Source of the DNA: an uncultured Clostridia bacterium
GTDB lineage: Bacteria; Bacillota; Clostridia; Christensenellales; UBA1242
Direction: 5' to 3'
Assembly: GCA_944341445.1 (NCBI GenBank)
Contig: CALVLZ010000003.1
Location: 156,448-220,447, forward strand
Length of the DNA stretch: 64,000 bases
Under the pieces are notes generated by a model that did no database searches, was not told the origin of the DNA, and was given only the letters and a program-made list of their open reading frames with translations. Shown here piece after piece: positions 5,687 through 63,904 of this stretch; position 1 is the first letter of the stretch, and each line of letters opens with the position of its first letter. Position numbers and translations under genes: made by a program.

Positions 5687-5710
5687 AGCAGACCTTTGCT
5701 TTATTTTTTT
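5681..5710. terminator. bidirectional intrinsic terminator
   Basis: TAAAGCA / TGCTTTA stem flanked by an A-run and a T7 run, between convergent genes. Confidence 0.6.
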
Positions 5711-6605
5711 AAACTCCTTCTAAATCAAAACTTGGTATATACTCATCACTTGCACTATCCAAACTTTGCATAAAACCATTTTTAAAACCAAGCAAATTAA
5801 AATAATTAACAACCCTTTTATATTCAATTGGTTTAAGTTTTTTATTTATAAAATCATAACCATTTGCTTTAAAGCAAGGAACATATTGCCCCATTATGCT
5901 AATTATTGTGTTATCCCCTAAATTGTTAAAAATCCAATCTAAAATTTTAACACTGTCATTTGTGCAACTTGGCAAAACTAAATGCCTAATAATAACGCCT
6001 TTTTGCATAATTCCGTTATCATCAAAAACATCTTTTGGCTGATTTTTTCTCATTTGAAGTATTGCTTTTGTTGCAACTTCAAAATAGTTTTCTGCTCCGG
6101 ATAACGTTTTAGAAAGTTTTTTATCGTAATACTTCAAATCTGTTAAATAAATATCAACATAATCTTTTAATAATTTTATTATTTCTTCAGATTCATAACC
6201 ACTTGTGTTATAAACAATTGGTATTTTTGGTTTGTAAATTTTTAATGCTTCAATAATCTCAAAAACATGTGGTGTTGGAGTTACTAAATTTATATTGTGT
6301 GCTTTTTTCAATTCCAACTCTTTAAAAATTTCAACAAGTCTTTCAACAGTTATTTCTTTTCCCACCGCACCAAAACTTATTTCACTGTTTTGGCAATACA
6401 CACATTTTAAGTTGCAACCGCTAAAGAAAATTGTTCCACTTCCATTGGTTCCAGATATTGGCGGTTCTTCCCATTTATGCAAATAAACCTTTGCAACTTT
6501 TAATTTTTTAACGCCACAAAACCCATTTTTTTCATTTCTGTTAATTCCACATTTTCTGGGGCAAGATTCACATTTTGTTAACTGAAAAATTTCACTATTT
6601 TTCAT
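5709..6605 (-). CDS. radical SAM protein, PflX-like (putative glycyl-radical-enzyme activase family)
   Basis: CNLKCVYCQN is a CxxxCxxC radical-SAM cluster motif. There is an additional N-terminal Cys cluster (CESCPRKCGINRNEKNGFCG), as in the COG1313/PflX family. About 298 aa. Confidence 0.8.
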   Translation of the reverse strand: MKNSEIFQLTKCESCPRKCGINRNEKNGFCGVKKLKVAKVYLHKWEEPPISGTNGSGTIFFSGCNLKCVYCQNSEISFGAVGKEITVERLVEIFKELELKKAHNINLVTPTPHVFEIIEALKIYKPKIPIVYNTSGYESEEIIKLLKDYVDIYLTDLKYYDKKLSKTLSGAENYFEVATKAILQMRKNQPKDVFDDNGIMQKGVIIRHLVLPSCTNDSVKILDWIFNNLGDNTIISIMGQYVPCFKANGYDFINKKLKPIEYKRVVNYFNLLGFKNGFMQSLDSASDEYIPSFDLEGV

Positions 6606-18075: not shown

Positions 18076-19221
18076 TTAAATTCGCCTTGTTAAATTAACA
18101 CCTTCACTAAAATTGCACTTATTGTTGCAAACGTAATCTGGAAAAGTGCAACGAGCGCCTTTTGAATATTGCAATAAATATTCTTTAAGTTTTGAATTTT
18201 TAACATTTTGTATATATTTGTTAAGTGTGTTTTTTGTTTGTTCCATAATTTCTAATTGTGCATGTGTGCAAAGTCTTTCTTTTGCTTTTAAAATAAAATC
18301 TTCAGGGATTCCCCTTTCAGATATATTAACAATTTCTGCTTGTGGAAATAAGTCTTTAACTTCTTGCATATCTTTTAACCATTCATTTTTTAATGCTTCA
18401 TCTTTTTCGATAATTCTTGGAACGTAAAACTCTTTTTCCTTTTGCATTGAAATACTATAATTAATTGTTCTATGCCTTTGTGCTTGAGCAAAACTTGCCA
18501 AACTCCCTTTATAATTTGTTGAATACACGTCGCCAAAATATTCATCATGCGAAATATCAGAAAACATTGAGAAATTTCTACCCTTTCCATCAACTAACTT
18601 TTCATCAATCAAATTGCTTTCTTTTAGCTGTTTGCAAAACTCCATTGCATAAGGATATAATTTTTGTGTTATTTTGCTATTATAATTTTCTTCATTTTGT
18701 AACCAATTATAAATATAATTTAACTGTCTATACGAAACTGTGTAAACCATTGAAGTTGGCATAAAAACAGACAAATAATATCTTGCATTTTCTTGAGCAA
18801 GTTTTTCTATTTTTTGTTCAGTCATACATGGATATTTTCCATATTCATCTTTTATTTTGATTTTTAAAATATCTAACCACTTTTCATAATAAAATTTTTC
18901 AACTCCTTCCATTTGCATTTGTGTATATCTTGCAGACTTTTCTGATGTTGTGTACACTTTTTCATTGTTTAACAACATTGCAAAAAACTTAGGAACATTT
19001 TCTAAATACAATGAAATATACTCATGGTCAAACACACTATGGTGCCCATCGTTTTTAGTTCTTTCTGCTCTTTTAAAAATTGTTGTTTCTGGTTGATTTT
19101 CTAAATCTTCAAAAGTGTTTTTCATATAACAAACACCCGCAACAATTCCACTGAATTTATCAAACTCATTCTTATCCATAAAATTTTTTGTATTTGTTGT
19201 TGCAATAACTCTAATTTTCAT
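18076..19221 (-). CDS. ThyX-like (Thy1 fold) protein, apparently two fused ThyX-like halves
   Basis: GHHSVFDHEY, SEKSARY and ARYYLS...TVSYRQL in the N-half; FAQAQRHRTINYS and RLCTHAQLEI in the C-half. The start at MKIRVIATT has GGAGG upstream. Confidence 0.6.
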   Translation of the reverse strand: MKIRVIATTNTKNFMDKNEFDKFSGIVAGVCYMKNTFEDLENQPETTIFKRAERTKNDGHHSVFDHEYISLYLENVPKFFAMLLNNEKVYTTSEKSARYTQMQMEGVEKFYYEKWLDILKIKIKDEYGKYPCMTEQKIEKLAQENARYYLSVFMPTSMVYTVSYRQLNYIYNWLQNEENYNSKITQKLYPYAMEFCKQLKESNLIDEKLVDGKGRNFSMFSDISHDEYFGDVYSTNYKGSLASFAQAQRHRTINYSISMQKEKEFYVPRIIEKDEALKNEWLKDMQEVKDLFPQAEIVNISERGIPEDFILKAKERLCTHAQLEIMEQTKNTLNKYIQNVKNSKLKEYLLQYSKGARCTFPDYVCNNKCNFSEGVNLTRRI

Positions 19222-19320
19222 AATTTTTTTCCTCCATATATTGAATTTCACTAGATATTTTAGAATACGTTTGTTATAATGTAAAATACAAATATTTTAT
19301 GATAGGTATAAAAAATTTTT

Positions 19321-21597: not shown

Positions 21598-22887
21598 ATG
21601 TGCTGTTCTAATAATAATTGTAACAATTGCTGCAATGATAAAATTAAAAGAACCATTGTTAATAATACTTACTTTGATGCAGGCACTGGCCCTACTGGTC
21701 CAACTGGTCCTACTGGTCCATCCGGAACAGGCCCCACTGGTCCTACTGGTCCAACTGGTCCTACTGGCACCACAGGTTTAACAGGCGCACGTGGTTTAAC
21801 AGGTTCAACAGGTCCTACCGGACCTACCGGTCCTCAAGGCAACACCGGAGCAACTGGTGCAATGGGTGCAACAGGTCCAACCGGTCCTACTGGCCCTCAA
21901 GGTGACGCAGGCCCACAAGGTGCAACAGGTCCTACTGGTCCATCTGGAACTGGCCCTACTGGCCCTACTGGTCCTACCGGGCCTCAGGGTGCACAGGGAG
22001 AAACTGGACCTACCGGGCCTTCTGGAACTGGGCCAACTGGGCCTATTGGCCCTACTGGCCCACAGGGTGCAGAAGGTGCAACAGGACCTACCGGGCCTAC
22101 CGGTCCTACTGGGCCTCAAGGTGATGCAGGCCCACAGGGTGCAGAAGGTGCAACCGGTCCTACTGGTCCAACCGGTCCTACAGGACCTCAAGGTATAACA
22201 GGATTACAAGGTGCTGAAGGAGCAACCGGTCCTACTGGTCCTGAAGGTCCAACAGGCCCACAGGGAGAAATAGGTCCAACCGGACCAACTGGAGATACAG
22301 GTGCAACTGGTGCTGAGGGGGCAACCGGACCTACCGGTCCTACCGGACCGCAAGGAACCGAGGGAGCAACCGGACCTACTGGCCCTACTGGTCCAACTGG
22401 TCCTGAGGGTCCTACCGGTCCAACAGCTATTGCAGGTCTTGCTGCGTTTGGCGGAGCATATAATCCAACAACTCAAACACAATTACTCGCAAGAACCAAC
22501 AACTATGTTCCTTTGCAACTTTCAACTTCACTTCCGCTAAACAACGTAACACATTGTGATGATACTATAAATATTACAAAGAGCGGTAATTATGAAATAT
22601 ACTATTCTGTGTTTGTTGGTTCTCAAACTGAAGACACTGTTAGCGCAACTGTTAGAAGCAATGGAAATGAAATACCACAACTAACAACAACACAGAAACT
22701 TTCAGTTACTAATCAAAGTGCATCAGAATATGGTTCTTCTTTCACAGGAAATGCTTTGGCATACTTGAATGCTGGCGATAGAGTTGATTTAGCAATAAAA
22801 AGTTTAACAGGCAACAATCCAAGTTTATTAATTGGTTCTAATAATGATTGCATTTTACTTGTTAAACTTTTAGATGCTCAACTTTAA
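21598..22887 (+). CDS. collagen-like triple-helix repeat protein with BclA/C1q-like C-terminal domain
   Basis: Residues 29-276 are almost pure Gly-X-Y ([12 protein letters not shown]). The N-terminus is [12 protein letters not shown], and the C-terminal ~150 aa are a beta-rich globular domain resembling BclA_C. AAGGAG SD upstream. Confidence 0.9.
21682..22425 (+). repeat. GC-rich triplet-periodic (GGN-CCN-ACN) coding repeat of the collagen-like region
   Basis: About 248 codons of GXY. Locally much more GC-rich than the surrounding sequence, with long near-identical 9-27 nt units. Confidence 0.9.
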
Positions 22888-24016: not shown

Positions 24017-25405
24017 TTAAAATTGCAAGTTGCCAACAGTTCTTGGGAACAATTCAACATCTCTAATATTTCCCATTCCTGTTACATACATAATTAATCT
24101 TTCAAAGCCTAAGCCATATCCAGAATGTTTGCAACCACCATATCTTCTTAAATTAATATAGAATTCGTAATCTTCTTCTTTTAGTCCAAGTTCTTTAATT
24201 CTATTAGTTAAAACATCCACACGTTCTTCACGTTGACTTCCACCAATTAATTCTCCAACACCTGGCACAAGCAAATCAACAGCTGCAACGGTTTTGTTAT
24301 CATCGTTTAATCTCATATAGAATGCTTTAATATCTTTTGGATAATCTGTTAAGAAAACAGGTTTTTTATAAACTTGTTCTGTTAAATATCTTTCGTGTTC
24401 GCTTTGCAAATCAATACCCCAAGAAACAGGATATTCAAATTTGTCTTTAACTTTTTCTAAGATTTCAATTGCTTTTGTGTAAGGAAGTCTAACAAAGTCT
24501 TCATCAACAATATTTTTTAATCTTTCTAATAATCCATTATCAACAAACTTATTTAAAAATTCAAGTTCATCTGCACATTTTTCCATCAAACCAGATATAA
24601 CGTATTTAATCATTTCTTCTTCATTATCCATTAAACCGTTAATATCTGTAAAGCACATTTCTGGTTCCATCATCCAAAATTCAGCAGCGTGTCTTGAAGT
24701 GTTGCTGTTTTCTGCTCTAAAAGTTGGGCCAAAAGTGTATGTGTTTTTAAATGCGTGCGTGAAGCACTCTTCATTTAATTGTCCAGAAACTGTTAAGCTT
24801 GCTTTTTTACCAAAGAAATCTTGTTTATAATCAACTTGTCCATCTTCAGTTTTAGGAACGTTGTTCAAATCAAGCGTTGTAACTTGAAACATTTCTCCTG
24901 CTCCTTCGCAGTCACTTGAAGTGATAATTGGAGTGTTAACATAAACGAAATCTTTTTCATTAAAAAATTTGTGAATTAAAAATGCTGCAACACTACGAAT
25001 TCTGAACACTGCGTTGAATGTGTTTGTTCTTGCTCTTAAATATGCAATTTCTCTTAAAAATTCAAGTGAGTGACGTTTCTTTTGTAAAGGATAATCTAAA
25101 GCACATTCTCCTTCGACTTCAACTTTTGTTGCTTGAATTTCAAATGGTTGTTTGTTTTCTGGTGTTAAAACCACAACACCTGTTATGTTAAATGAAGCTC
25201 CGCTATTTTGCTTAACAACTTCCGCATAATTTTGTAAATCATCTGAGTTTAAAACAATTTGAACCCCTTTAAAGAAACCATCGTTTAATTCTATAAAAGC
25301 AATTGTTTTACTATCTCTAATAGTTCTTGCCCAGCCAGAAATTTCAACAGTTTTGTTTGCGTAATCATTGAAATTTTTGTTAAGCATTTTAGTAGTAACT
25401 TTCAT
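24017..25405 (-). CDS. asnS: asparagine--tRNA ligase
   Basis: [21 protein letters not shown] (class IIb motif 2 region specific to AsnRS) and GGSQREER ... GYGLGFERL (motif 3). 462 aa. Confidence 0.95.
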
Positions 25406-27378: not shown

Positions 27379-28668
27379 TTATGGTTTAATTCTATTTGGT
27401 CCACGGAAAATGTAGCAAACTTCTTTAATTGTTTGCAAGTTTAAAAGTTTAACAAAGAATCTTGCAAGACCCAAACCTAAACCACCATGTGGAGGGCAAC
27501 CATACTTGAAAAATTCTAAATAATCTTTCATATTTTCACTGTTGATGCCTTTTTCTTCAATTTGGCTTTTTAAAACATTATATCTGTGTTCACGTTGTGC
27601 CCCACTTGTTATTTCTTGACCATTCCAAATAAGGTCAAAACTTTTTGTATATTTAGGGTCTTCTTCACATTTCATTGAATAAAATGCTCTTGCCTCAAAA
27701 GGATAATCTGTTACAAAAACAAATTCAGAATTATATTTATCTAAAACATATTTTCCAATTAATTTTTCACTTTCTTGGTCTAAATCGTTTTTAATGCTTT
27801 TATATCCGTATTCTTTTTCTAAAATTTCAACAACATCTTTAAACTTTAATCTTGGAATGTTTGTTGGAACAACAACTTTAGTGTTAAACACATTTTCAAG
27901 AACATCGCCATAATTTTGGCTAACACGTTCTAGAACATATTTAATTAAGCCTTCTTCTAAATCCATAACATCATGATGACTTTCAATGTAGCTCATTTCC
28001 ACGTCGAAGCCCATAAATTCAGTTGCGTGACGGTTTGTGAAAGAACTTTCTGCTCTGTAATATGGCCCAATTTCAAACACTTTTTCAAAACCAGCACTCA
28101 TTGCCATTTGCTTATATAATTGTGGGCTTTGAGTTAAAAATGCAGGTTGTCCAAAATAATCAACTTTAAAAACTTCACTTCCCCCTTCACTGCTTTGAAC
28201 TGAAATTTTAGGAGTGTGAATTTCAATTGCATCACAATTAATCATATAATCACGCATACATTTTTCAATAAATGTTGAAATTTTAAAAATTGCAATATTT
28301 TTTGGATCTCTTAAATCAATCCATCTATAATCCATTTTTTGATCAATTGAACTATCTTTAGCAATTGGCAAGGCTTCTGAATAACTTTCAACTTCTAAAC
28401 TTGTTGGAATAAGTTCCATTCCGTTTAATTTAACAAACTCACTTTTGAAAACTTCGCCTGTTATTGTAACAACAGAATCAACTAATAATCCACTAACCTT
28501 TTCTGCTATTTCTGGAAGTTTTTCTTTTTCAATTGTTACTTGAATGCTTCCTGTAATATCTCTAACAACCAAAAATTGCATACTTTTTTTATCACGTAAA
28601 TGTTCAACAAAACCTTGAATTTTAACACTTTTGCAAGGTTCCACTTTTCCTATCATTGTTCTTTGCAT
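27379..28668 (-). CDS. aspS: aspartate--tRNA ligase, archaeal/eukaryotic type (short form without GAD insertion)
   Basis: 429 aa with FEIGPYYRAESSFTNRHATEFMGFDVEMS (motif 2), GAQREHR and GGLGLGLARF (motif 3). It lacks the ~150-aa insertion of bacterial-type AspRS. Confidence 0.88.
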   Translation of the reverse strand: MQRTMIGKVEPCKSVKIQGFVEHLRDKKSMQFLVVRDITGSIQVTIEKEKLPEIAEKVSGLLVDSVVTITGEVFKSEFVKLNGMELIPTSLEVESYSEALPIAKDSSIDQKMDYRWIDLRDPKNIAIFKISTFIEKCMRDYMINCDAIEIHTPKISVQSSEGGSEVFKVDYFGQPAFLTQSPQLYKQMAMSAGFEKVFEIGPYYRAESSFTNRHATEFMGFDVEMSYIESHHDVMDLEEGLIKYVLERVSQNYGDVLENVFNTKVVVPTNIPRLKFKDVVEILEKEYGYKSIKNDLDQESEKLIGKYVLDKYNSEFVFVTDYPFEARAFYSMKCEEDPKYTKSFDLIWNGQEITSGAQREHRYNVLKSQIEEKGINSENMKDYLEFFKYGCPPHGGLGLGLARFFVKLLNLQTIKEVCYIFRGPNRIKP

Positions 28669-46592: not shown

Positions 46593-46606
46593 ATTTGCTC
46601 TTTTTT
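46577..46606. terminator. bidirectional intrinsic terminator (includes stop codon of upstream gene)
   Basis: AAGAGCAAAT / ATTTGCTCTT stem followed by T-run, between convergent genes. Confidence 0.7.
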
Positions 46607-47348
46607 ATTGCACAATAACATTTTGTAAATTTGCTTTTAGAATGTTTTTTAGTTTTTTTAACTCTTCAATTTTTAAATCTTTTGTGTTAAGTAGTGGGTT
46701 TTCAATACCCAATTTTTCATATTTTGAAAAGCCCATTGTGTGAAATGCTAACAAATCATATTTTTTAACGCACTTAAAATTTTTAACAATTTCTACAAAT
46801 TTTATAACATCTTCTTTTGTATTATTAATGTTTGGAATCATAACTGTTCTTATCCAAACATCTTTATTTTTTTCTTCACAAACACTTAGGAATTTTAAGG
46901 TTTGTTCCAAACTTCCACGTGCATATTTTTTATATTTTTCTTCTGTGTTTTGTTTCATATCCAACAAAATTAAATCACACATTTCAATAACTTTTAAAAC
47001 ATCATGATTTATCACACATCCAGAAGTGTCTAACGCAACACTTATTCCATTTTGCTTTAACAATGGAATAAAGTTTAATAGAAAAGATGTTTGCATTAAA
47101 GGTTCTCCACCACTTAATGTTACGCCGCCTTTATTTTTAAAATATGGCTTATACCTTAAAACCTTTTTTAATAAATCTTCGGCACTTATCTCTTCACCTT
47201 TTCTTTCCCAAGTTTCTGGATTATGGCAACAAACACATCTTAATGGGCAACCTGCAAAAAATATTTCAAATCTTATTCCTGTTCCATCCAAAGTTGCAAA
47301 ACTTTCGTACGAACTAATTATTGCAGTGCTTTTGTTAACATTATTCAT
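46605..47348 (-). CDS. pflA: pyruvate formate-lyase activating enzyme
   Basis: GTGIRFEIFFAGCPLRCVCCHNPETW (radical-SAM CxxxCxxC in the PFL-AE context) and GGVTLSGGEPL. It lies directly downstream of pflB. Confidence 0.92.
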   Translation of the reverse strand: MNNVNKSTAIISSYESFATLDGTGIRFEIFFAGCPLRCVCCHNPETWERKGEEISAEDLLKKVLRYKPYFKNKGGVTLSGGEPLMQTSFLLNFIPLLKQNGISVALDTSGCVINHDVLKVIEMCDLILLDMKQNTEEKYKKYARGSLEQTLKFLSVCEEKNKDVWIRTVMIPNINNTKEDVIKFVEIVKNFKCVKKYDLLAFHTMGFSKYEKLGIENPLLNTKDLKIEELKKLKNILKANLQNVIVQ

Positions 47349-50387: not shown

Positions 50388-50420
50388 AAAAAAATACCAC
50401 TACTTGGTGGTATTTTTTTT
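50388..50420. terminator. bidirectional intrinsic terminator overlapping the ATPase stop codon
   Basis: ATACCAC-tacttg-GTGGTAT hairpin flanked by A6 and T8. Confidence 0.75.
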
Positions 50421-53099
50421 CTTTTTTAAATACTTCCTAATAAAAATTTTTGTTATTTCCATAATTGGAACAATTAAGAAAGCAAAACCTAAACATATTA
50501 ACCATTGAACAGCGTTTAAGTCTGTTATTCCAAACGCTTCATGTAGAACTGTGATTGGCAATAACACAATAATTGAAGTTAATATAAAGTCAACAATAAA
50601 TGCAAAGTTCACCCACTTGTTACTAAATACTCCAATTTTAAAAATACTTTTATCTTCGCTTCTCATATTGTATGTATGGAATAGTTGAATAGTTACTAAT
50701 GTTACAAAACACATTGTTACAACAACATCATATGAAAATTTAAACGAATACAAACCTAAGAAGTAAACAGCAAAAACTAATAACGATTGCATTATGCCAT
50801 TAAAAATAATATTAAAACCAACGGTTCCTCTGAACAAGTGCCCACGGTTATCGTTCGGTGGTCGTTTTAAAACATCCTTTTCTGCTTTTTCACATCCTAA
50901 TGCCAAAGCAGTGAATGTGTCGGAAACAAAGTTTACCCATAATATTAGTGCAGCATTAAAAAATGGTCTTCCCATTATTGCCATAATTGTTGTTAGCAAA
51001 ATAAGCTCTGAAACTGCAGTACCTAACAAATATTGCACAATTTTTAAAACGTTAGAATAAATTCTTCTTCCTTCTTTAACCGCAGTTACAATTGTTGCAA
51101 AATTATCATCTGTTAAAACAACGTCTGCAACGCTTTTAGTAACATCTGTTCCTGTTATTCCCATTCCAACGCCAATATCAGCACTTTTAATGCTTGGAGC
51201 GTCATTAACACCATCACCTGTCATGGCAACAACTTTATTTTGTGCCTTAAAAGCTTTAACAATTTTAACCTTGTGTTCTGGGTTAACTCTTGCATAAACT
51301 CTATATTCACTAACTTTTGTTGCAAAATCTTCATCACTAATTTCATCAAGTTCTGCACCGGTTATAACTTGAAACTCATCTTCAGCAATACCCAACTCTT
51401 TGGCAATAGCAAAAGCTGTGTCTCTGTGGTCTCCTGTTATCATAATAGGAGTTATACCTGCTTCTTTACAAGTTTTAATTGCACTAATAACTTCTTTTCT
51501 TGGTGGGTCAATCATACCTGTTAAACCAACAAAAATTAAATCATTTTCTGTGCTTTTTACATCAATATTTTTAGGGTCTTTAACAACCTTATATGCATAA
51601 CCCAAAACTCTTAATGCGCTTAGTGCCATTTCGTGGTTAACATCTTCAATTAACTTTCTATCTTTTATTTCAAGTTCTCGCACTTTTCCATTATCTAAAA
51701 TATGAGTGCATTTATATAATAATTTATCAACAGCACCTTTAACAAATGCTACATTCTTTTTATCGATATTGTTAACAGTTGTCATAACCTTTCTTTCAGA
51801 ATCAAAAGGAATTTCGTTAACTCTTTTAAATTTTTTATCAAAGTCTATTTTGCTAAAACCAATTTCATTTCCATAATAAACAAGTGCTGTTTCTGTTGGG
51901 TCTCCAACACATTCTAATTTGCCATTATTTATTTTTGAAACTGTATCGTTGCAAAGCAACATTGCTTGCATTAATTTTTCAAAACTTTTGTTTTTTGTTA
52001 ATTCAGTTTTTAATTTCTCGTGGCTTAAGTTTTCTTGTTTTGAAATATCCATTCCTAAAGTGAAAACTTTTTTAACAACCATTTTATTTAATGTTAATGT
52101 TCCTGTTTTATCTGAACAAATAATTTGAGTGCTACCCAAAGTTTCCACTGCTGGCAACTTTCTAACAATTGCCTTTTCTTGGCTCATCTTTTTAACACCA
52201 ATAGACATTGTTATAGTAACCGCAGTTGGCAACCCTTCAGGAATTGCACAAACTGCAATTGCAATGGCTGTCATAAAACTTTCAACAACAGGTGTTCCGT
52301 TAACAATATCAATTATAAATATCATTATACAGATTGCAATAACTAAAACACTTATGATTTTGCTAGTTTTATTCAATCTTTTTGTTATTGGTGTTTGCTC
52401 TTCTTTTTCAGATTCCAAAGCACCTGCAATTTTTCCCATTTCTGTGTTCATACCAATTCTAACAACAACACCATGTGCTCTGCCATATGTTACAGTGCTA
52501 CCCATAAACGCCATATTTAATTGGTCACCAAGTGGCACAACATTTTCTGTTATTAAATTGATATTTTTTTCAACAGGCACACTTTCGCCTGTTAGCATGC
52601 TTTCTTCAATTTTTAAACTTGCACATTCAAAAAGTCTTAAGTCTGCAGGAACTATATCTCCCGCCTCTAAAATAACAACATCACCAACAACCAAATCTTC
52701 TGTTTTAATTTTTTGAATTTTTCCATCTCTTAAAACTTTGGCATATGGTTTTGTTATCTTTTTTAGGTTCTCCATTGTTTTTTCAGCATTATTTTCCTGC
52801 ACTAATCCGATTATTGCATTCAACAACACAACAAACATTATAATTCCAGCATCCAATAATTCGCTTGCGCTTTTTTCAACAATTGCAATAACAACGCTTA
52901 TTAAACAAGAAACCAACAAAATTAAAATTAAAACATCTTTAAATTGTTCTAAAAATTTAACAAATAAACTTTTTTTCTTTTTTTCTTGCAAAACATTTTT
53001 GCCTTGCTGTTGTTGGCGAATTAATGCTTCTTGCTCACTTAAACCATTTTCACTTGATTTAACACTTAAAAACACATCTTCAATTGTTTTGTTAAACAT
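50400..53099 (-). CDS. P-type ATPase, Ca2+-transporting (type IIA/PacL-like)
   Basis: TGES, the phosphorylation site CSDKTGTLT, the TGDGVNDAPS hinge, and PEGLP in M4. About 10 TM helices, 899 aa. Confidence 0.92.
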   Translation of the reverse strand: MFNKTIEDVFLSVKSSENGLSEQEALIRQQQQGKNVLQEKKKKSLFVKFLEQFKDVLILILLVSCLISVVIAIVEKSASELLDAGIIMFVVLLNAIIGLVQENNAEKTMENLKKITKPYAKVLRDGKIQKIKTEDLVVGDVVILEAGDIVPADLRLFECASLKIEESMLTGESVPVEKNINLITENVVPLGDQLNMAFMGSTVTYGRAHGVVVRIGMNTEMGKIAGALESEKEEQTPITKRLNKTSKIISVLVIAICIMIFIIDIVNGTPVVESFMTAIAIAVCAIPEGLPTAVTITMSIGVKKMSQEKAIVRKLPAVETLGSTQIICSDKTGTLTLNKMVVKKVFTLGMDISKQENLSHEKLKTELTKNKSFEKLMQAMLLCNDTVSKINNGKLECVGDPTETALVYYGNEIGFSKIDFDKKFKRVNEIPFDSERKVMTTVNNIDKKNVAFVKGAVDKLLYKCTHILDNGKVRELEIKDRKLIEDVNHEMALSALRVLGYAYKVVKDPKNIDVKSTENDLIFVGLTGMIDPPRKEVISAIKTCKEAGITPIMITGDHRDTAFAIAKELGIAEDEFQVITGAELDEISDEDFATKVSEYRVYARVNPEHKVKIVKAFKAQNKVVAMTGDGVNDAPSIKSADIGVGMGITGTDVTKSVADVVLTDDNFATIVTAVKEGRRIYSNVLKIVQYLLGTAVSELILLTTIMAIMGRPFFNAALILWVNFVSDTFTALALGCEKAEKDVLKRPPNDNRGHLFRGTVGFNIIFNGIMQSLLVFAVYFLGLYSFKFSYDVVVTMCFVTLVTIQLFHTYNMRSEDKSIFKIGVFSNKWVNFAFIVDFILTSIIVLLPITVLHEAFGITDLNAVQWLICLGFAFLIVPIMEITKIFIRKYLKKKKNTTK

Positions 53100-54233: not shown

Positions 54234-54707
54234 TTAAATATTATTAACTTTATTTAAAAAATCAACAATAAATTTTCTGTCGAAAAGCTTAACATTATTT
54301 TTTTCTGCCAAACTTATTGCGCTTTTTGAAAAGTGCCAATTGGTTATAACACAAGCATCTTTAATTTTATAATATTTTCTAGCTGCAACAATTTCTTGAA
54401 CTGCAGAATTCCCAACTAAATGGTTATAATACAACTTTGTTTGAACAATCATTTTTCTAAACCATTTTTTTGCAATAATATCCGCACCATAATCGTGGCT
54501 CTTTGGAGTTTTTTTAGTTTTCCAACCATAATATTGTAAAATTAAACAAACAATTTCTTCAAATTCTTCTCCATTTATTGCATCGATATTATCAATAGAA
54601 ACTTCAAAAAAAGCACTCTTTATTTTGCCTTTTTTATAGTTTGTATATTTTATAACAAACAACACAATAAGTATTATAAAAATAACACTAAAGATAAAAT
54701 ACCACAT
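54234..54707 (-). CDS. membrane-anchored restriction-endonuclease-fold (Mrr_cat-like) protein
   Basis: One N-terminal TM helix, then FEEIVCLILQYYGW...DYGADIIAKK...IVQTKLY, a D-(x)n-(Q/E)xK PD-(D/E)xK-type core as in Mrr N-terminal-less nucleases. Confidence 0.65.
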   Translation of the reverse strand: MWYFIFSVIFIILIVLFVIKYTNYKKGKIKSAFFEVSIDNIDAINGEEFEEIVCLILQYYGWKTKKTPKSHDYGADIIAKKWFRKMIVQTKLYYNHLVGNSAVQEIVAARKYYKIKDACVITNWHFSKSAISLAEKNNVKLFDRKFIVDFLNKVNNI

Positions 54708-58284: not shown

Positions 58285-58611
58285 ATGGCAACAAATCAAA
58301 ACAAAAAAACAACTACAAAAACAACTACTACAACAAGAAAATCAAGCACTTTTTGGGGGTTGAACAAAATTTCAATGTACACAATAGTTGCTGTTGCAAT
58401 TTTGTATGTAATTTCACTATTGCTAGCTTGTGTTAATGTTAACCTAAAAGTTGTTAGTGCTTTGCAAGGTGTTGCAACTGCAATTATGATTTCTATTGTT
58501 GCAGTTTTAGCTTGGCGTTATGTTAAAGCAAAACCTGCGGTTTGGAAAGTTTTATATGTTATTTGTTTATTACTTGTTATAGTTGGAATTATTGTTCCAC
58601 TAGTTATTTAA
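58285..58611 (+). CDS. small three-TM membrane protein with Thr/Lys-rich N-terminus
   Basis: AAGGAG lies 7 nt upstream of the ATG at 58285 (MATNQNKKTTTK). Three hydrophobic helices. Confidence 0.55.
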   Translation: MATNQNKKTTTKTTTTTRKSSTFWGLNKISMYTIVAVAILYVISLLLACVNVNLKVVSALQGVATAIMISIVAVLAWRYVKAKPAVWKVLYVICLLLVIVGIIVPLVI

Positions 58612-58616
58612 TGCGT

Positions 58617-58641
58617 AAAATGGGCCCACTGCCCATTTTTT
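58617..58641 (+). terminator. intrinsic terminator
   Basis: AAAATGGGC-ccact-GCCCATTTT hairpin with T-run. Confidence 0.8.
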
Positions 58642-58770
58642 GCTTTTTATAACTAAATAAAAATATCATTGTTTTTTAATTTATATAGTACATATATTCT
58701 TAAAAATTTTGATATGTCAAAGTATAGTTAAAACTATATTTGCATATAAATTTTAAAAGGAGGTTGCAAA

Positions 58771-58923
58771 ATGAAATCTTACTTTAATTGGTGGGATGAT
58801 GGTTCTGATGAAATTATAGACGAAACCACTACAACATATCCACTTGGCGATGACGATATCGACGAGGAAATAAGCTTTCCTACCTCAATTTATGATTCTG
58901 GCATTTACATAGATGAAGATTAA
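58771..58923 (+). CDS. hyper-acidic mini-protein, divergent member of the tandem family (50 aa)
   Basis: AAGGAGG lies 7 nt upstream of the ATG. Product MKSYFNWWDDGSDEIIDETTTTYPLGDDDIDEEISFPTSIYDSGIYIDED. It shares YP-x-(D/G)DD-x-D...GIY...acidic tail with the three downstream copies. Below the ORF-track size cut-off. Confidence 0.5.
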   Translation: MKSYFNWWDDGSDEIIDETTTTYPLGDDDIDEEISFPTSIYDSGIYIDED

Positions 58924-59265
58924 TAAAGTTTAATAAATCGTTAATAAATACTTCACAAAATTAAATAAGAGTTGAAATTATTGTATACATTACGAATTTG
59001 AAAATGTAAACCAATACCTAAAAGATAAAGACACTAATACTCTTATAAATTCTTCTAATACAAATTGTGAAGGTTTTTGTAACAATTAAACTACTTATTA
59101 TTCTTGCAAATACAAAATAATTTAAAAATACGCAACTTATAAAAATAATTATTAATTAAACAACTAAGTTGACATAATATAAAATTTAATATAATTATAA
59201 TTAAAAAACTTTTATCCACAGAATTATTTAACAATAAAAAAATTAATATATAAGGAGGTATCATT

Positions 59266-59415
59266 ATGGCAGACGATTACGACGATCAAGACGACAGAAG
59301 CTATCCTATGGATGATGACGCTGATGTTCATGAAGAATACGATGAAGGCCGTTTAGATTTTGGGATGCATATTGAATACGAATCAGACAATAGTTATGAT
59401 GATGACAATGACTAA
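59266..59415 (+). CDS. hyper-acidic mini-protein, family member 2 (49 aa)
   Basis: AAGGAGG lies 7 nt upstream of the ATG. Product MADDYDDQDDRSYPMDDDADVHEEYDEGRLDFGMHIEYESDNSYDDDND. 43 nt are identical to copy 3. Not in the ORF track. Confidence 0.6.
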   Translation: MADDYDDQDDRSYPMDDDADVHEEYDEGRLDFGMHIEYESDNSYDDDND

Positions 59416-59494
59416 TTAAAATAGTTAAACATTAATATTTTTTAATTATAAAAAAATTGTATAAATTTATATAATATAGAAAGGAGATTCTATT

Positions 59495-59635
59495 ATGGCA
59501 CACTATTACGACGATCAAGACGACAGAAGCTATCCTATGGATGATGATGTTGATATTCTTGAAATTATCGAGGATGACAGACCTGATTTTGGCATATATG
59601 ATGACGATGATAGCGATGGCAGTGATGATGAATAA
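59495..59635 (+). CDS. hyper-acidic mini-protein, family member 3 (46 aa)
   Basis: AAGGAG lies 8 nt upstream of the ATG. Product MAHYYDDQDDRSYPMDDDVDILEIIEDDRPDFGIYDDDDSDGSDDE. Not in the ORF track; the track instead lists an antisense ORF at 59432-59656. Confidence 0.6.
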   Translation: MAHYYDDQDDRSYPMDDDVDILEIIEDDRPDFGIYDDDDSDGSDDE

Positions 59636-59707
59636 TTGAAACAAAAATATTTTCACTTTGTTAAAAATTCTGTAAATTTAGATAAAAATTTAAAAAGGGG
59701 GTATCAT

Positions 59708-59857
59708 ATGACACACAAATACGACGATCAAGACGACAGAAGCTATCCTACAGACGGCGACGTAGATATTCAAGAAATATATGATAATGGCGAAACTGAT
59801 TTTGGTATATATAATGACTACGACAGCGATGATAGCGACAGCAGTGACGATGAATAA
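59708..59857 (+). CDS. hyper-acidic mini-protein, family member 4 (49 aa)
   Basis: AAGGGGG lies 6 nt upstream of the ATG at 59708. Product MTHKYDDQDDRSYPTDGDVDIQEIYDNGETDFGIYNDYDSDDSDSSDDE. The track ORF 59636-59857 carries a spurious N-terminal extension. Confidence 0.65.
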   Translation: MTHKYDDQDDRSYPTDGDVDIQEIYDNGETDFGIYNDYDSDDSDSSDDE

Positions 59858-59870
59858 TTAAAAGAAAAAG

Positions 59871-59900
59871 AGAAAGCACCTTAAGATTGCTTTCTTTTTT
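59871..59900 (+). terminator. intrinsic terminator closing the mini-gene array
   Basis: AGAAAGCA-ccttaagat-TGCTTTCT hairpin followed by T6. Confidence 0.7.
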
Positions 59901-59984: not shown

Positions 59985-60061
59985 GCGCTATTAGCTCAGC
60001 TGGATAGAGCGTTGGTCTACGGAACCAAAGGTCGAGCGTTCGAATCGCCCATGGCGCACCA
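59985..60061 (+). tRNA. tRNA-Arg (anticodon ACG), CCA encoded
   Basis: The acceptor stem GCGCTAT pairs with ATGGCGC. D-loop AGCTCAGCTGGATAGAGC, anticodon stem-loop TTGGT-CTACGGA-ACCAA, T-loop GTTCGAATC, and a terminal ACCA. Confidence 0.9.
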
Positions 60062-60204: not shown

Positions 60205-60675
60205 TTAAACATTATCCTCTTTTAAAATATCATAGCACAAATCTTCATAAAAGTCATTAGCGCCATTTTCATTATCTAATTTTTCAACTAATTTTTGGAT
60301 AACTTCTTTATCTTGATTTTCAACATTAACTGCATTTTCAATTTGTTTTAAGTTTTCAATAAATTCATTAAAAGAATTGGCAACTTTCATAATACTATCC
60401 CAATCATCATGCATCATAAAATATATAGGAAAACCCTTTGTTCCAGCATCTGCAATGATAACATCGCCAAGGCTTGTTTCAAAACCAACAACATAAAAAT
60501 TTTCACCTATTAGTTCATTCCATTCTTTAATGGGTTTGTTTTTAATAGGATTAAATCTAAAGCCATCTTGTGCTTGTACAAAATTGTCAGAATCAATAAT
60601 TTCTAATATTGCAACATCTTTTATTTTAAAAACCTTATAGTTGTTTTCTTTTAATTTTCTAATTAATATCTCCAT
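60205..60675 (-). CDS. SUKH-superfamily (SMI1/KNR4-like) protein, putative immunity-type protein
   Basis: 156 aa. The C-terminal half GDVIIADAGTKGFPIYFMMHDDWDSIMKVANSFNEFIENL follows the SMI1/KNR4 pattern (..Gd.i..d.....piy...hd......vA.SF.eFi..l). GGAAGGA SD upstream. Confidence 0.5.
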   Translation of the reverse strand: MEILIRKLKENNYKVFKIKDVAILEIIDSDNFVQAQDGFRFNPIKNKPIKEWNELIGENFYVVGFETSLGDVIIADAGTKGFPIYFMMHDDWDSIMKVANSFNEFIENLKQIENAVNVENQDKEVIQKLVEKLDNENGANDFYEDLCYDILKEDNV

Positions 60676-60776
60676 CTATTCCTTCCTACAACATACACAT
60701 TATATCATGTAACAAATTAATTCGTTAGTTAAATTTTTATTTAACAATTCCTAATATTTAATCATTATAGCTTTCT

Positions 60777-62231
60777 TTATTTCTTTAATTTATCTAAATT
60801 TCTTTTATAATTATTTTCAACATTTGATAAATTAGACCATTGTCCAACAACGATTTCATCACCTTCTCTAAATTTTTGAATGTCATTATGTGCTTTTAAA
60901 ACGCTTTCAGTTGGTTTAATTTTGTCCCAATCAATTTCTCCCACTTTTTCCAACAATGCTGTTAACTCATTATTAATTTTAACTGTTTCTTCATAATTTT
61001 CATTTTCGAAAGATTTTGAAACTATTGTTCCTAAATTTTCCTTTAAAGAAACAAATAATGAAACACAATATTCTCTAACATCTTTAAACACATCTTTTTG
61101 AATATCTGTTAACTCTTCATATTCTTTGCTTTTTTGGAACTTTTCATCCAAAATTATATATTTACCAAATCTACTTAATTCTTTAATAATATCATTTTTT
61201 ATTTTATAATTTTCTTTTTGCAAAGTATAATTAGAAATTTTTTCTTTTGATGCAACATATTTTTGTGGCAAAGGCCTTGCTATTTGCACATGTTTTAATG
61301 TTTCTTTCATTTCTTGTTCAGAAACTATACCATCGTTAAGCAATTTATTAAAATATGGCATCATTTCTTTATTGAAAACAAAACTTAATTCAGACATATC
61401 TTTTCCGCTTAAAGTTTCACCACTCATTGAATGTTGAATCATATTTGATAATATTATGTTAGATACAACTGACATAACTTGACCTTGTGCAGTTTTATCA
61501 CCTTTTAAGTCGAAATATTCTTTATATGTGTGGTCTTTATCTTCTCCATTGTTTAACTGCTCAACAATAATTGAAACTTCGTGCCCATTGTCTAAAACAT
61601 TAATTCCATTTTTCCTCATTGCTATCATTAAAGGAAACATAAGCTCTGAATCCGCTTTTGAAAACATATGAATTGTTGTAAATTTTGCCCTACCCAAAGG
61701 AATGCGACTTGTAACATCAATCACACAAACTTGCGCCATTAATTCTTCAACTTCCTTATCAGAATATTTTCCGCTATCTATTAAATCCTTTTCCATTAAT
61801 TCTGATATATTTTGAATTTTTTTCGTTGCAGCACAATAGCCTGCTATGTTAATTTTACGCAAATCTTTTTTTAAGCATTCAACGGTTTTATAACTTCCGT
61901 CACTATTAAATAAAATTGGTCTAAAATATTTTTCATAAATCTCTTGCGGTTTGCCTACCGATGCTGAAAGAAACTGTATCCCACAACTCTCAATATCTTC
62001 CCAAGAATATGCATCAACTAATTCAACCATATTTTCAGGTTTGGAAACAAATCCAACTGCTTTTCCTGCTGCATTAATTGCACCATTAATGTCTTTTTCA
62101 GTACCATCTACTGGAACAAAAGATATTAATGTTGGTCCACTTGTTAAAGAAAAATCTGCAGAAACTTCCTTGATTCCATATGGATGCTCCTCTGATGCTC
62201 TGCATTTAATATAAAAAATATTTTTTTGCAT
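60777..62231 (-). CDS. hypothetical 484-aa protein: N-terminal alpha/beta domain plus helical Lys/Glu-rich C-terminal half
   Basis: Strong SD (AAGGTG). No signal peptide or TM helix and no family recognised. There is a possible nucleophile-elbow-like INIAGYCAAT. Confidence 0.6.
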   Translation of the reverse strand: MQKNIFYIKCRASEEHPYGIKEVSADFSLTSGPTLISFVPVDGTEKDINGAINAAGKAVGFVSKPENMVELVDAYSWEDIESCGIQFLSASVGKPQEIYEKYFRPILFNSDGSYKTVECLKKDLRKINIAGYCAATKKIQNISELMEKDLIDSGKYSDKEVEELMAQVCVIDVTSRIPLGRAKFTTIHMFSKADSELMFPLMIAMRKNGINVLDNGHEVSIIVEQLNNGEDKDHTYKEYFDLKGDKTAQGQVMSVVSNIILSNMIQHSMSGETLSGKDMSELSFVFNKEMMPYFNKLLNDGIVSEQEMKETLKHVQIARPLPQKYVASKEKISNYTLQKENYKIKNDIIKELSRFGKYIILDEKFQKSKEYEELTDIQKDVFKDVREYCVSLFVSLKENLGTIVSKSFENENYEETVKINNELTALLEKVGEIDWDKIKPTESVLKAHNDIQKFREGDEIVVGQWSNLSNVENNYKRNLDKLKK

Positions 62232-62992: not shown

Positions 62993-63904
62993 TCATTTAA
63001 CATCTTCTTGAAAACCATTAGAATAAACAAAACTAAAACCATCTGCAAGTTCTTGAACTATAATAAAATCAGTAACATTTCCATTTTTATATTCCACAGA
63101 AAATTTATCTGCAACATTTGTTTGTTTAATTTTGTATTCCACTTTTCCTAATTTAGCATCAGCGAATTCCATTTCAACAAAAGTTTTGTTGTTTTCTTTT
63201 TCTATTTCAAATTCAGTTTCAGAGATTTTTATGCCGTTTTCGTAAACTTCATATTCATATTCAACTTCATCATTTTCCACTTCTTGTTTAATAACAACAT
63301 AATTATTAGGGTTTTCTAAACTTATGGTTTTAAACTCAATTGAAGATTCTTTTTCGTTTCCTTCAACTTCGAACTCTCTTTTGCCTTGCACTTTAAATTC
63401 CAAACCGTCAACAAGCATAATTCCAACAAGATTAGTTGAAACTTCCACCTCAACATTTTCGTCTTCAATTTCTTTATTTGTTTTTGTTTCTGTTTCGTTA
63501 TAATACATTTTATATTCACTTGTTGTTCCGCCATAGTTTGGCAAACTAATTTTCATAACAAAATTATATGTTCCAAAATATTCATCATTATCTAAAACCT
63601 TTGTTGTTGTTTGACTTATTCCATTATTAATCATAATTTGGTCAAACATTTGAATACCACATTTAATATTGCTAACATCACTGTTTGAAATATGGGTTGG
63701 GCGTGTTTGTGAACTTGTTAACAAATTTTTAGCAACATTCCCTTCTAAATCTTTTAAGTAATTTGCACCAGACACTGCACTCATAGCATAAACATCTTTT
63801 GCAACAATGTTAATGTTGTTGTTCTTTTTACATCCACCAAGACCTAAAGATAAAGTGGCAAAAACAGCGCCAACAACCGCAACTGTTATAAAACCCTTCT
63901 TCAT
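62993..63904 (-). CDS. lipoprotein, Glu-rich beta-type extracellular domain
   Basis: Signal peptide MKKGFITVAVVGAVFATLSLGLGGC with a lipobox (LGGC). AGGAGGG SD upstream. No functional motif. Confidence 0.8.
   Translation of the reverse strand: MKKGFITVAVVGAVFATLSLGLGGCKKNNNINIVAKDVYAMSAVSGANYLKDLEGNVAKNLLTSSQTRPTHISNSDVSNIKCGIQMFDQIMINNGISQTTTKVLDNDEYFGTYNFVMKISLPNYGGTTSEYKMYYNETETKTNKEIEDENVEVEVSTNLVGIMLVDGLEFKVQGKREFEVEGNEKESSIEFKTISLENPNNYVVIKQEVENDEVEYEYEVYENGIKISETEFEIEKENNKTFVEMEFADAKLGKVEYKIKQTNVADKFSVEYKNGNVTDFIIVQELADGFSFVYSNGFQEDVK

Follow-up and report, generated by a model that had tools for sequence, protein, structure and literature searches.

What is encoded by four mini-ORFs lying on the same strand between a small membrane-protein gene and a tRNA-Arg gene, and what might their products do? 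We addressed this in the window, meaning the whole 64-kb stretch of DNA that was analysed. The earlier note had described four ORFs of 46-50 aa, each with a strong SD 6-8 nt ahead of its ATG; our analysis exactly reproduced their coordinates and translations and verified all four SD sequences. The array, with its copies designated P1 to P4, is laid out as follows.

58700..58728, + strand: promoter-like site 5' of P1, TTAAAA-17-TATAGT (putative; consensus scan, 9/12 matches)
SD AAGGAGG 58757-58763 and CDS 58771-58923, + strand: P1, 50 aa, the most divergent copy
58924..59265, + strand: P1-P2 spacer, 342 nt, AT-rich, 17.5% GC
59169-59198, + strand: promoter-like site in the P1-P2 spacer, TTGACA-18-AATTAT
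SD AAGGAGG 59252-59258 and CDS 59266-59415, + strand: P2, 49 aa
59276..59318, + strand: identical block of P2, 43 nt, with its P3 counterpart at 59505-59547
59278-59308 = 59507-59537 = 59720-59750, + strand: inner 31 nt of the block, in P2, P3 and P4
SD AAGGAG 59481-59486 and CDS 59495-59635, + strand: P3, 46 aa
SD AAGGGGG 59695-59701 and CDS 59708-59857, + strand: P4, 49 aa
59866..59900, + strand: intrinsic terminator ending the array, 13-bp stem, 9-nt loop, T-run
59985-60061: tRNA-Arg(ACG), downstream of the array terminator, with its own perfect TTGACA-17-TATAAT promoter

The SD-to-ATG spacing was 7 nt in P1 and P2, 8 nt in P3 and 6 nt in P4. Across the 64-kb window, all 19 sites combining a strong SD with an ATG opened an ORF no shorter than 46 aa; P1-P4 account for four of the 19. 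The hairpin that had been proposed to close the array was borne out by RNA folding (-12.8 kcal/mol, z = -3.2), and 0 of 200 shuffled sequences was equally stable. It was missed by the simple terminator scan, probably because its 9-nt loop exceeds the limit of 8 nt in that scan; between P1 and P4 the terminator scan detected no terminator-like site. The promoter-like site ahead of P1 is located 3' of the terminator (58617-58639) of the upstream membrane-protein gene, which is predicted by inspection to encode 108 aa with three hydrophobic segments. No decayed fifth copy was found in the P1-P2 spacer by tblastn and blastn, and no further family copy was found elsewhere in the window. The locus is chromosomal, not phage or plasmid. 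On the downstream side, the SUKH pair that had been suggested proved to be absent: the ORF at 60205-60675 gave a weak, below-threshold SMI1/KNR4 match (E 1.5e-3), and its 484-aa neighbour had no match in family searches.

The recomputed composition agreed with the hyper-acidic, Cys-free character first reported, with Asp and Glu making up 32, 45, 46 and 39% of P1, P2, P3 and P4, respectively, and at most two Lys and Arg residues in each. The net charge is -15 to -20, GRAVY is -0.8 to -1.8, and neither a signal peptide nor a TM segment was found. The conserved family core reads [DT][DT][RT][ST]YP-x-D-x-D-x-D-[VI]-x-E-x-[YI]-x4-D[FS]G[IM][YH] and is followed by a variable tail of Asp, Ser, Asn and Tyr; P1 retains YP-x-(G)DDD-x-D ... 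D-x-GIY, and D-x-D-x-D is invariant across all family members. AF2 with an 8-sequence alignment returned a mean pLDDT of 58 and a pTM of 0.21, with a 6-residue helix (residues 21-26) as the sole helix. No confident fold resulted; the peptides are predicted to be disordered in isolation and may fold on binding.

We then asked how widely the family occurs. Exhaustive searching of 1.84e9 representative proteins with HMMER yielded the locus's own peptides, an 80-aa protein (P0006) and a 3945-aa protein (P0005), and a search of 5.8e9 proteins added a 42-aa protein (P0007). P0005 was rejected, since 13 weak repeats in this repetitive, eukaryote-like protein add up to a spurious score. Over these 1.8-5.8 billion proteins, together with DNA motif and pattern scans of GTDB, JGI and IMG/VR, the family is confined to three lineages: the species of the window, with 4-copy and 3-copy alleles; the contig L061, carrying P0007 as a stand-alone gene; and the contig L056, carrying the chimera P0006, the only longer relative. 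Family-profile scans of two GTDB species-representative sets, JGI metagenomes and IMG/VR gave no confirmed relative; a looser DNA pattern, YPxDxDxD-10aa-DFG, gave 17 matches, all of which were due to chance. No homologue was found near the RlmA orthologues of 51 other genomes. The earlier note's view that the family is not a recognised one holds, since Pfam, NCBIfam, PHROGs, PADLOC and PDB contained no match. In L061, the P0007 ORF has a promoter (TTGACG-17-TATAAT), an SD (GGAGG) and a terminator, all within a 699-bp unit in which it stands alone, showing that the acidic module is self-contained and can exist as a lone gene with its own signals.

Several comparisons indicate that these ORFs are protein-coding. 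Among P2-P4, dN/dS outside the identical block was 0.13-0.37, an estimate that had been suggested as a check, and the plus frame was free of stops with the lowest pN/pS among the six frames. In both other lineages the homologues keep the peptide sequence and not the nucleotide sequence: the P2 core and P0007, which comes from another organism, are 78% identical at pS 0.91 and pN 0.15, and across lineages pN/pS is 0.16-0.36 with synonymous sites saturated. Within the array, pS reaches 0.6-0.7, yet all four copies keep SD, ATG and an open frame. These results uphold the earlier view of real tandem paralogous genes, and P1-P4 are very probably genuine members of a new family. Gene callers had recorded most copies, with no name or family assignment on any; the family is thus almost absent from annotation although it is under clear purifying selection and consists of about 45% Asp/Glu. 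A strong SD combined with cross-copy dN/dS can recover genes that are passed over by length-filtered ORF lists and family annotation. Coding on the antisense strand was considered and rejected: the minus-strand ORFs are I/V-rich, lack an SD, have inconsistent starts and stops and show pN/pS no better than the plus frame.

Conservation at the protein level across lineages also argues against a non-coding, CRISPR-like or DGR-like repeat; the repeats are spaced 213-229 nt apart, and their differences are not confined to A positions. A related proposal, that the ORFs act in cis as Asp-codon attenuators or as a non-coding repeat or RNA element controlling tRNA-Arg, would explain why a terminator sits directly 5' of the tRNA gene. 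It could also draw on Rfam, where Thr_leader weakly matches the P4 3' end together with the terminator (24 bits against a gathering threshold of 55, E 0.11). However, the tRNA-Arg gene has its promoter past the terminator, the conserved positions are residues other than Asp (Y, P, F, G, R), the antisense ORFs have neither consistent ends nor an SD, and the peptide is kept in other lineages with different DNA and a different downstream sequence. No Rfam family passed its threshold, and a known RNA element was discarded, the tRNA and the sub-threshold Thr_leader match being all that Rfam detected. Because protein-level conservation spans lineages, we regard this cis-acting role as effectively refuted and extremely improbable.

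The identity among copies was confirmed: 43 nt are identical between P2 and P3 and 31 nt among all of P2-P4, and the window contains the 31-mer three times, where 0 occurrences are expected. The earlier note had taken this block as a sign of selection on the peptide. However, codons 5-14, which it covers, contain 0 synonymous differences, compared with pS of 0.58-0.71 elsewhere, and a block of 31-43 nt without synonymous differences, where pS is 0.6-0.7 in the remainder, therefore points to gene conversion. Strain variation agrees with active recombination. One allele (L002) equals the window sequence minus a clean 229-bp deletion whose crossover falls inside the identical block; and a P2/P3 recombinant (P0003) was found in other samples. 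A strain variant of P1 (P0004) differs by one non-synonymous and two synonymous SNPs, and the P4 protein was called identically on 5 contigs from other samples. We read the identical block as the probable tract of gene conversion and as the likely crossover site of the 3-copy allele. Together, these results show an array shaped by duplication, by gene conversion of the 5' block and by unequal crossing-over, which yields 4-copy and 3-copy alleles; a defined recombination hot-spot drives this polymorphism in copy number.

Such dynamics could suggest that the array is functionless, that is, neutral or selfish repeated DNA that was recently amplified and is held open by chance or by gene conversion. 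The active gene conversion, the copy-number variation from strain to strain and the extremely narrow distribution, with three lineages among billions of proteins, are all in line with this. We nevertheless consider it very unlikely, given the low pN/pS between lineages at saturated synonymous sites, the retention of translation signals and frame in four diverged copies, and the L061 relative with its complete promoter, SD and terminator.

The one longer relative, P0006, links the module to peptide maturation. Family homology covers P0006 residues 4-44 (E 3e-5 and 2e-12), so that the acidic module occupies the N terminus, the leader position, ahead of a Cys-rich (CGCD)n tail. Its gene is 6 nt upstream of a maturase gene, L056 2162-3502, whose radical-SAM/SPASM product acts on peptides by family and has sub-threshold matches to CefB, TIGR04463, FlmE/OhkG, Clo7bot and PapB. 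L061 matches L056 at 80% identity over 1880-1987, which takes in the 5' UTR plus codons 1-25, and L067, which encodes a related maturase, is homologous to L056 from position 2067 onward only. A common MK[IV]LKK-type leader of ~20 aa, reading MKVFKIG... in L067, is found in the precursors accompanying related maturases (L067, L068, L069) and also in the second L056 precursor. Judged from these alignments, P0006 evidently arose when a P0007-like 5' UTR and its first ~35 codons were fused in frame onto a Cys-rich RiPP core, replacing the leader. Because the relatives of the maturase (54-70% identity) use a different leader, the acidic leader is best seen as a one-off chimera. We considered whether the RRE of the P0006 maturase had been re-adapted to the acidic leader, for which there was no support, as divergence of its N-terminal (RRE-like) domain is ordinary and no greater than in the relatives. 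A pattern scan of GTDB representatives detected no close relative of this maturase. P0006 is a natural leader swap and is relevant to leader-swap engineering of radical-SAM maturases.

This chimera raises the possibility that the whole family is RiPP-related, with the acidic module as leader or recognition domain and P1-P4 as precursors for an unlinked maturase or as trans-acting leader-only peptides. The earlier note had listed peptide precursors among several roles; P0006 provides one concrete link for that role, and the link is itself ambiguous. The module lies in P0006 exactly where a leader is expected, beside the maturase, and it is still under purifying selection there compared with P0007 (pN/pS 0.16). 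The array looks like a classic precursor array: the N-terminal part is conserved, down to identical DNA, the C-terminal tails vary, and the size of 42-50 aa fits. Moreover, recruitment of small-protein families as leaders has precedent in Nif11 and NHLP, stand-alone families that also serve as leaders of RiPP precursors (Haft et al. 2010, PMC2887384). As in those cases, a stand-alone family recurs here at the N-terminal leader position and forms multi-copy arrays with conserved N-terminal and variable C-terminal parts. However, neither family shares sequence similarity with the acidic module, which is ~35 aa long, hyper-acidic and predicted to be disordered; there is one fused example, demonstrably a recent chimera; and the window copies have neither a modifiable Cys core nor a nearby maturase.

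The details of the peptides and their surroundings weigh against precursor function. The conserved part covers residues 5-35 of about 46, leaving 'cores' of 4-14 low-complexity residues, that of P1 being merely IDED. P1-P4 and P0007 have zero Cys, P1-P4 lack the MK[IV]LKK-type leader, and the CGCD motif does not occur in the window in any frame. Neither the window nor the ~10 kb beyond it contained a SPASM maturase, YcaO, Lan enzyme, ATP-grasp, leader protease or dedicated exporter, and, in a family scan covering ORFs of at least about 225 aa, no maturase, protease or dedicated exporter was found within 58 kb upstream. By tblastn, the L056 maturase gave no match in the window better than E = 1.1. 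The sole ORFs with CxxxCxxC in the window are the PFL activase at 46605-47348 and a 298-aa rSAM at 5709-6605, the latter without a SPASM region and 52 kb from the array. P0007 likewise stands alone in its unit, and the P0006 cluster keeps its second precursor with a canonical leader beside a maturase whose RRE-like domain is not unusually diverged and whose relatives have another leader. PapB is a maturase making Cys-Asp thioethers (PMC9413430), and the (CGCD)n tail and adjoining radical-SAM/SPASM maturase of P0006 recall ranthipeptide/SCIFF-type systems, but the window peptides have none of the Cys, leader or maturase of such systems, and the homology is confined to an acidic N-terminal module foreign to that precursor family.

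Taking both sides together, a RiPP-related role of P1-P4 appears unlikely; if true, it would extend the idea of protein-derived leaders. A more specific version has the module as a portable, autonomous docking domain that can be used as a RiPP leader, the free copies (P1-P4, P0007) being leader-only peptides that work in trans to activate or titrate a radical-SAM/SPASM maturase, or substrates whose Asp/Ser/Tyr tails receive a novel modification from an unlinked source. We find this version somewhat harder still to credit; it would imply a new RiPP logic, in which an uncultured low-GC Clostridia lineage encodes precursor arrays at a distance from the enzymes.

The acidity of the peptides could also serve divalent cations, the D-x-D-x-D motif and poly-Asp tail binding or buffering Ca2+, Mg2+ or another metal. 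An acidic content of 32-46% and the invariance of D-x-D-x-D suit such a role, and a gene for a P-type Ca2+-ATPase (50400-53099) is located 6 kb upstream, which is proximity only. However, EF-hand, dockerin, Excalibur and other Ca-binding families were not detected in Pfam at E <= 0.1, and by inspection the spacing misfits the 12-residue loop D-x-[DNS]-x-[DNS]-G-x-[ILV]-x-x-x-E, position 6 being V/I instead of G and the Glu spacing being off. In addition, the conservation of aromatic, Pro and Gly positions points to recognition of a protein more than to simple chelation, and no conserved linkage to transport genes was seen in the other lineages. Metal binding is therefore an improbable explanation in our estimate.

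Our tentative preference, held with low confidence, is that each peptide is a disordered cytoplasmic polyanion that may act as a ligand or decoy by docking onto a basic partner. Lacking both a signal peptide and a TM segment, the free peptides would stay in the cytoplasm, where they would be disordered when alone and act stoichiometrically. The aromatic and hydrophobic anchors (Y5, SYP, a strand or helix of D-x-D-x-D-[VI]-x-E, and DFG[IM][YH]) could dock onto a basic surface of the partner, for which a nucleic-acid-binding or some other cationic protein is the most plausible candidate; further charge would come from the acidic tail, with the dose set by copy number. The basis of this polyanion reading is confined to physico-chemistry and analogy, and the RiPP-related role is its main rival. 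Of the module's genomic associations just one is informative, that with a RiPP maturase, and it favours that rival over the polyanion. Should the peptides turn out to be decoys for basic proteins, few known inhibitors of this kind would be as small or as disordered, and these ones would be encoded on the chromosome.

Small acidic proteins that mimic DNA include ArdA, phi29 p56 and Ugi. Further examples are T7 Ocr (PMC3439906) and Neisseria DMP12 (PMC3643605). The peptides described here resemble these mimics in small size and very negative charge density, and their proposed action would likewise occupy a basic, nucleic-acid-binding surface of the partner. They differ in showing no sequence or profile similarity, and Pfam, PHROGs, PADLOC and PDB sequences contained no homologue among DNA-mimic or anti-defence proteins. 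The mimics are folded, with charges arrayed like the DNA backbone, whereas the 42-50-aa peptides are predicted to be disordered, and the array is chromosomal instead of lying in a phage or a plasmid leading region. Literature on CefB, TIGR04463 and hyperacidic small proteins yielded nothing specific, and no homology to RpoE-type acidic tails was detected. In Firmicutes, the delta subunit of RNA polymerase (RpoE) has a hyper-acidic, disordered C-terminal domain that competes with nucleic acids. The likeness lies in a disordered polyanion, of low complexity and rich in Asp/Glu, from a low-GC Gram-positive organism; that polyanion, however, is the tail of a larger folded protein, while each copy in the array encodes a free mini-protein with conserved aromatic anchors.

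On re-reading, the region of four tandem same-strand genes for hyper-acidic mini-proteins (P1-P4) matched the earlier description exactly, in coordinates as well as in SD sites. The array and its flanks are laid out as follows.

58285-58611, upstream gene for a 108-aa protein with three hydrophobic segments
58617-58639, terminator of the upstream 108-aa gene
58700-58728, promoter-like site before P1
58771-58923 (+), P1 CDS, 50 aa; SD AAGGAGG, 7 nt to ATG
59169-59198, promoter-like site before P2
59266-59415 (+), P2 CDS, 49 aa; SD AAGGAGG, 7 nt to ATG
59495-59635 (+), P3 CDS, 46 aa; SD AAGGAG, 8 nt to ATG
59708-59857 (+), P4 CDS, 49 aa; SD AAGGGGG, 6 nt to ATG
59866-59900, terminator hairpin closing the array, -12.8 kcal/mol, z = -3.2
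59985-60061, tRNA-Arg(ACG), 3' of the array terminator

A strong SD located 3-10 nt before an ATG occurs 19 times in the 64-kb window, P1-P4 accounting for four of these sites, and since each of the 19 starts an ORF of 46 aa or longer, the SD sites of P1-P4 are not background noise. A scan of the array found no terminator-like site between P1 and P4, and the tRNA-Arg gene is preceded by a perfect promoter (TTGACA-17-TATAAT). The simplest transcription model, an inferred one, has P2-P3-P4 as one unit and P1 transcribed either by itself or with read-through. The products contain 32-46% D+E, at most two K+R and no Cys, and carry a net charge of -15 to -20. Their Asp codons are 40% GAC, compared with 22% in eight long genes of the window, and their genes have a GC of 0.36-0.40 compared with 0.27 for the genome, which may reflect a foreign origin or a tRNA-Asp decoding demand.

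P1-P4 had no match in Pfam, NCBIfam, PHROGs, PADLOC or PDB sequences. A profile search through all 1.84 billion cluster representatives yielded nothing beyond the peptides themselves, an 80-aa homologue from another lineage (P0006) and one spurious repetitive protein, and a search of 5.8 billion proteins added solely P0007, a 42-aa stand-alone homologue. No relative was found in 185,579 GTDB species genomes, JGI metagenomes or IMG/VR, even with a loose DNA pattern. The earlier note had not recognised the family, and these profile searches likewise led to no described one; the acidic mini-protein family is real and new at the sequence level. The host appears to belong to an uncultured lineage of Clostridia with low GC (27%); its AsnRS is 71-73% identical to those of Christensenellales-like MAGs including Ca. 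Onthoplasma, and its RlmA is less than 50% identical to anything among GTDB representatives.

P1-P4 very probably encode proteins. When the 31-43 nt block of identity among the copies was left out, pairwise comparison of P2-P4 gave a pS of 0.58-0.71 and a dN/dS of 0.13-0.37, the latter being a check that the earlier note had proposed. In the six-frame comparison, the annotated frame alone was free of stops and also had the lowest pN/pS. The strongest coding evidence is given by homologues outside this genome: P0007, on a contig of 39% GC, is 78% identical to P2 across a 27-residue core with a pN of 0.15, while synonymous sites are saturated (pS 0.91), and the acidic module of P0006, its conserved N-terminal segment, follows the same pattern. 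The P0007 gene also has its own terminator and a GGAGG SD, and its promoter is of textbook type (TTGACG-17-TATAAT, with an upstream TG). Open frame, dN/dS and cross-lineage conservation thus bear out the claim that these are real tandem mini-genes.

The 31-nt sequence TACGACGATCAAGACGACAGAAGCTATCCTA stands unchanged in P2, P3 and P4, and the identity extends to 43 nt between P2 and P3. The earlier note took these blocks, together with the in-frame divergence of the rest, as fitting duplication plus selection on the peptide. However, codons 5-14 show no synonymous change, against a difference at about 0.6-0.7 of the synonymous sites in the remainder, a pattern that peptide-level selection is unable to give, indicating that the block is a product of gene conversion. 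In line with this, a contig from another sample (L002) equals the window sequence minus a clean 229-bp deletion, with the crossover inside the block, leaving a P2/P3 hybrid gene (P0003) and a three-copy array. The four-copy form was seen again in other samples (L004 and L063). In core identity, P2 groups with P0007 and P0006 (63-78%) and not with P3 and P4 (59%), which argues that the paralogues are old and that their 5' ends were homogenised secondarily. The block lacks DNA-level conservation in the other lineages and is not a nucleotide-level functional element.

Two further contigs have unusual structures. L001 (239-1511) carries the P2/P3 hybrid gene but from about nt 294 turns into sequence unrelated to the array, where an ORF shows a weak Germane-domain match; the contig is an assembly chimera or else a rearranged array allele. 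The two ends of the P0007 contig (L061, 1-798) match exactly over 99 bp (1-99 = 700-798), so its 699-bp unit is either circular or tandemly repeated in its genome; tandem repetition would make it a second instance of amplification of a gene of this family.

P0006 carries a (CGCDY)n tail behind the acidic module. Its gene lies on nine contigs, and at all five loci read, a gene for a 446-aa radical-SAM/SPASM protein starts 6 nt 3' of it. The best NCBIfam matches of this protein, all sub-threshold, are the peptide maturases CefB, TIGR04463, FlmE/OhkG, Clo7bot and PapB. A second CGCD peptide of 51 aa follows the maturase. Related maturases (54-70% identical) on three contigs, L067-L069, accompany 2-4 precursors each, all with another leader of about 20 aa (MK[IV]LKK type) ahead of CGCD cores, and the core of the L067 precursor differs very little from P0006 in its C-terminal half. 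Because L067 aligns with the P0006 locus L056 at the DNA level only from codon 52 of P0006 onward, and L061 from 35 nt 5' of the ATG to codon 25 (80% identity), P0006 is a chimera in which a P0007-like gene, including its 5' UTR, replaced the normal leader. The acidic module is thus an independent unit able to occupy a leader position. The N-terminal (RRE-like) domain of the P0006 maturase shows no extra divergence from its relatives, and the cluster retains a precursor with a canonical leader. This natural leader-swap chimera and the mechanics of gene conversion and crossover are solid new observations.

The RiPP-like clusters themselves (L056 1914-3635; L057-L060; L067 262-1880; L068 5001-6471; L069 4837-7854) each combine a radical-SAM/SPASM maturase below the CefB, TIGR04463 and PapB cut-offs with 2-4 precursors of 'MK[IV]LKK...' leader plus (CGCD)n cores. 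They look like an undescribed ranthipeptide-like class, and with genes for PcfJ/PcfK, serine recombinase, Rep and RT as neighbours they may sit on elements that are conjugative or otherwise mobile.

The nearest functional analogues of P1-P4 are protein-derived RiPP leaders of the Nif11/NHLP type (PMC2887384), small acidic DNA mimics (PMC3439906, PMC3643605) and ranthipeptide precursors with PapB chemistry (PMC9413430); the peptides were tested against all three groups, and belonging to any of them was not established. P1-P4 could be precursors or trans-acting leaders for an unlinked RiPP enzyme, the main rival of the reading favoured below. However, they have no Cys, and nothing resembling a RiPP maturase, leader protease or dedicated exporter was seen in the 58 kb 5' of the array or in the roughly 10 kb past the window end, where upstream of 46.6 kb the family scan covered only ORFs of at least about 225 aa; we consider this role rather unlikely. 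AF2 predicted disorder (pLDDT 58) with one short helix. The variable tails comprise 4-14 D/S/N/Y/E residues. Conservation falls on aromatic residues, Pro, Gly and an alternating D-x-D-x-D-[VI]-x-E pattern, which together resemble a docking motif embedded in a polyanion and folding once bound. Our best guess, a tentative one, is that P1-P4 would act as cytoplasmic stoichiometric ligands or decoys of a basic partner, with copy number setting the dose. Cation binding by the acidic peptides is improbable, a complete lack of function in these conserved frames more so, and a role as cis-regulatory leader peptides is very remote; the remaining probability goes to something else.

Downstream of the array, the 'SUKH pair' of the earlier note was reduced to one ORF with a sub-threshold SMI1/KNR4 match. 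This 156-aa ORF and an adjoining gene for a 484-aa protein together span 60205-62231 (-), a 303-aa protein lies further along (62993-63904, -), and neither of the latter two matched Pfam, NCBIfam, PHROGs or PADLOC. The 156-aa and 484-aa genes may form a toxin/immunity-like pair. A free-standing Mrr-like nuclease domain of 157 aa (54234-54707, -) sits between phosphoketolase and DegV genes; its match to the C-terminal nuclease of PADLOC ZorD has an E-value of 2e-19, and Pfam Mrr_cat was found in the identical L062 gene. A collagen triple-helix-repeat protein in a GC-richer patch (21598-22887, +; 0.35 vs 0.27) and an ankyrin-repeat protein (2247-3509, -) are both uncommon finds in small, low-GC genomes of gut Clostridia. 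Genes for MGDG-synthase-like glycosyltransferases adjoin two paralogous class-II aminoacyl-tRNA synthetases of Asp/Asn/Lys type (24017-25405, -, and 27379-28668, -), which lie 2 kb apart. Finally, the Thy1 (ThyX) match of a 391-aa ORF (18076-19251, -) is limited to residues 32-179, with about 210 residues lying outside it.
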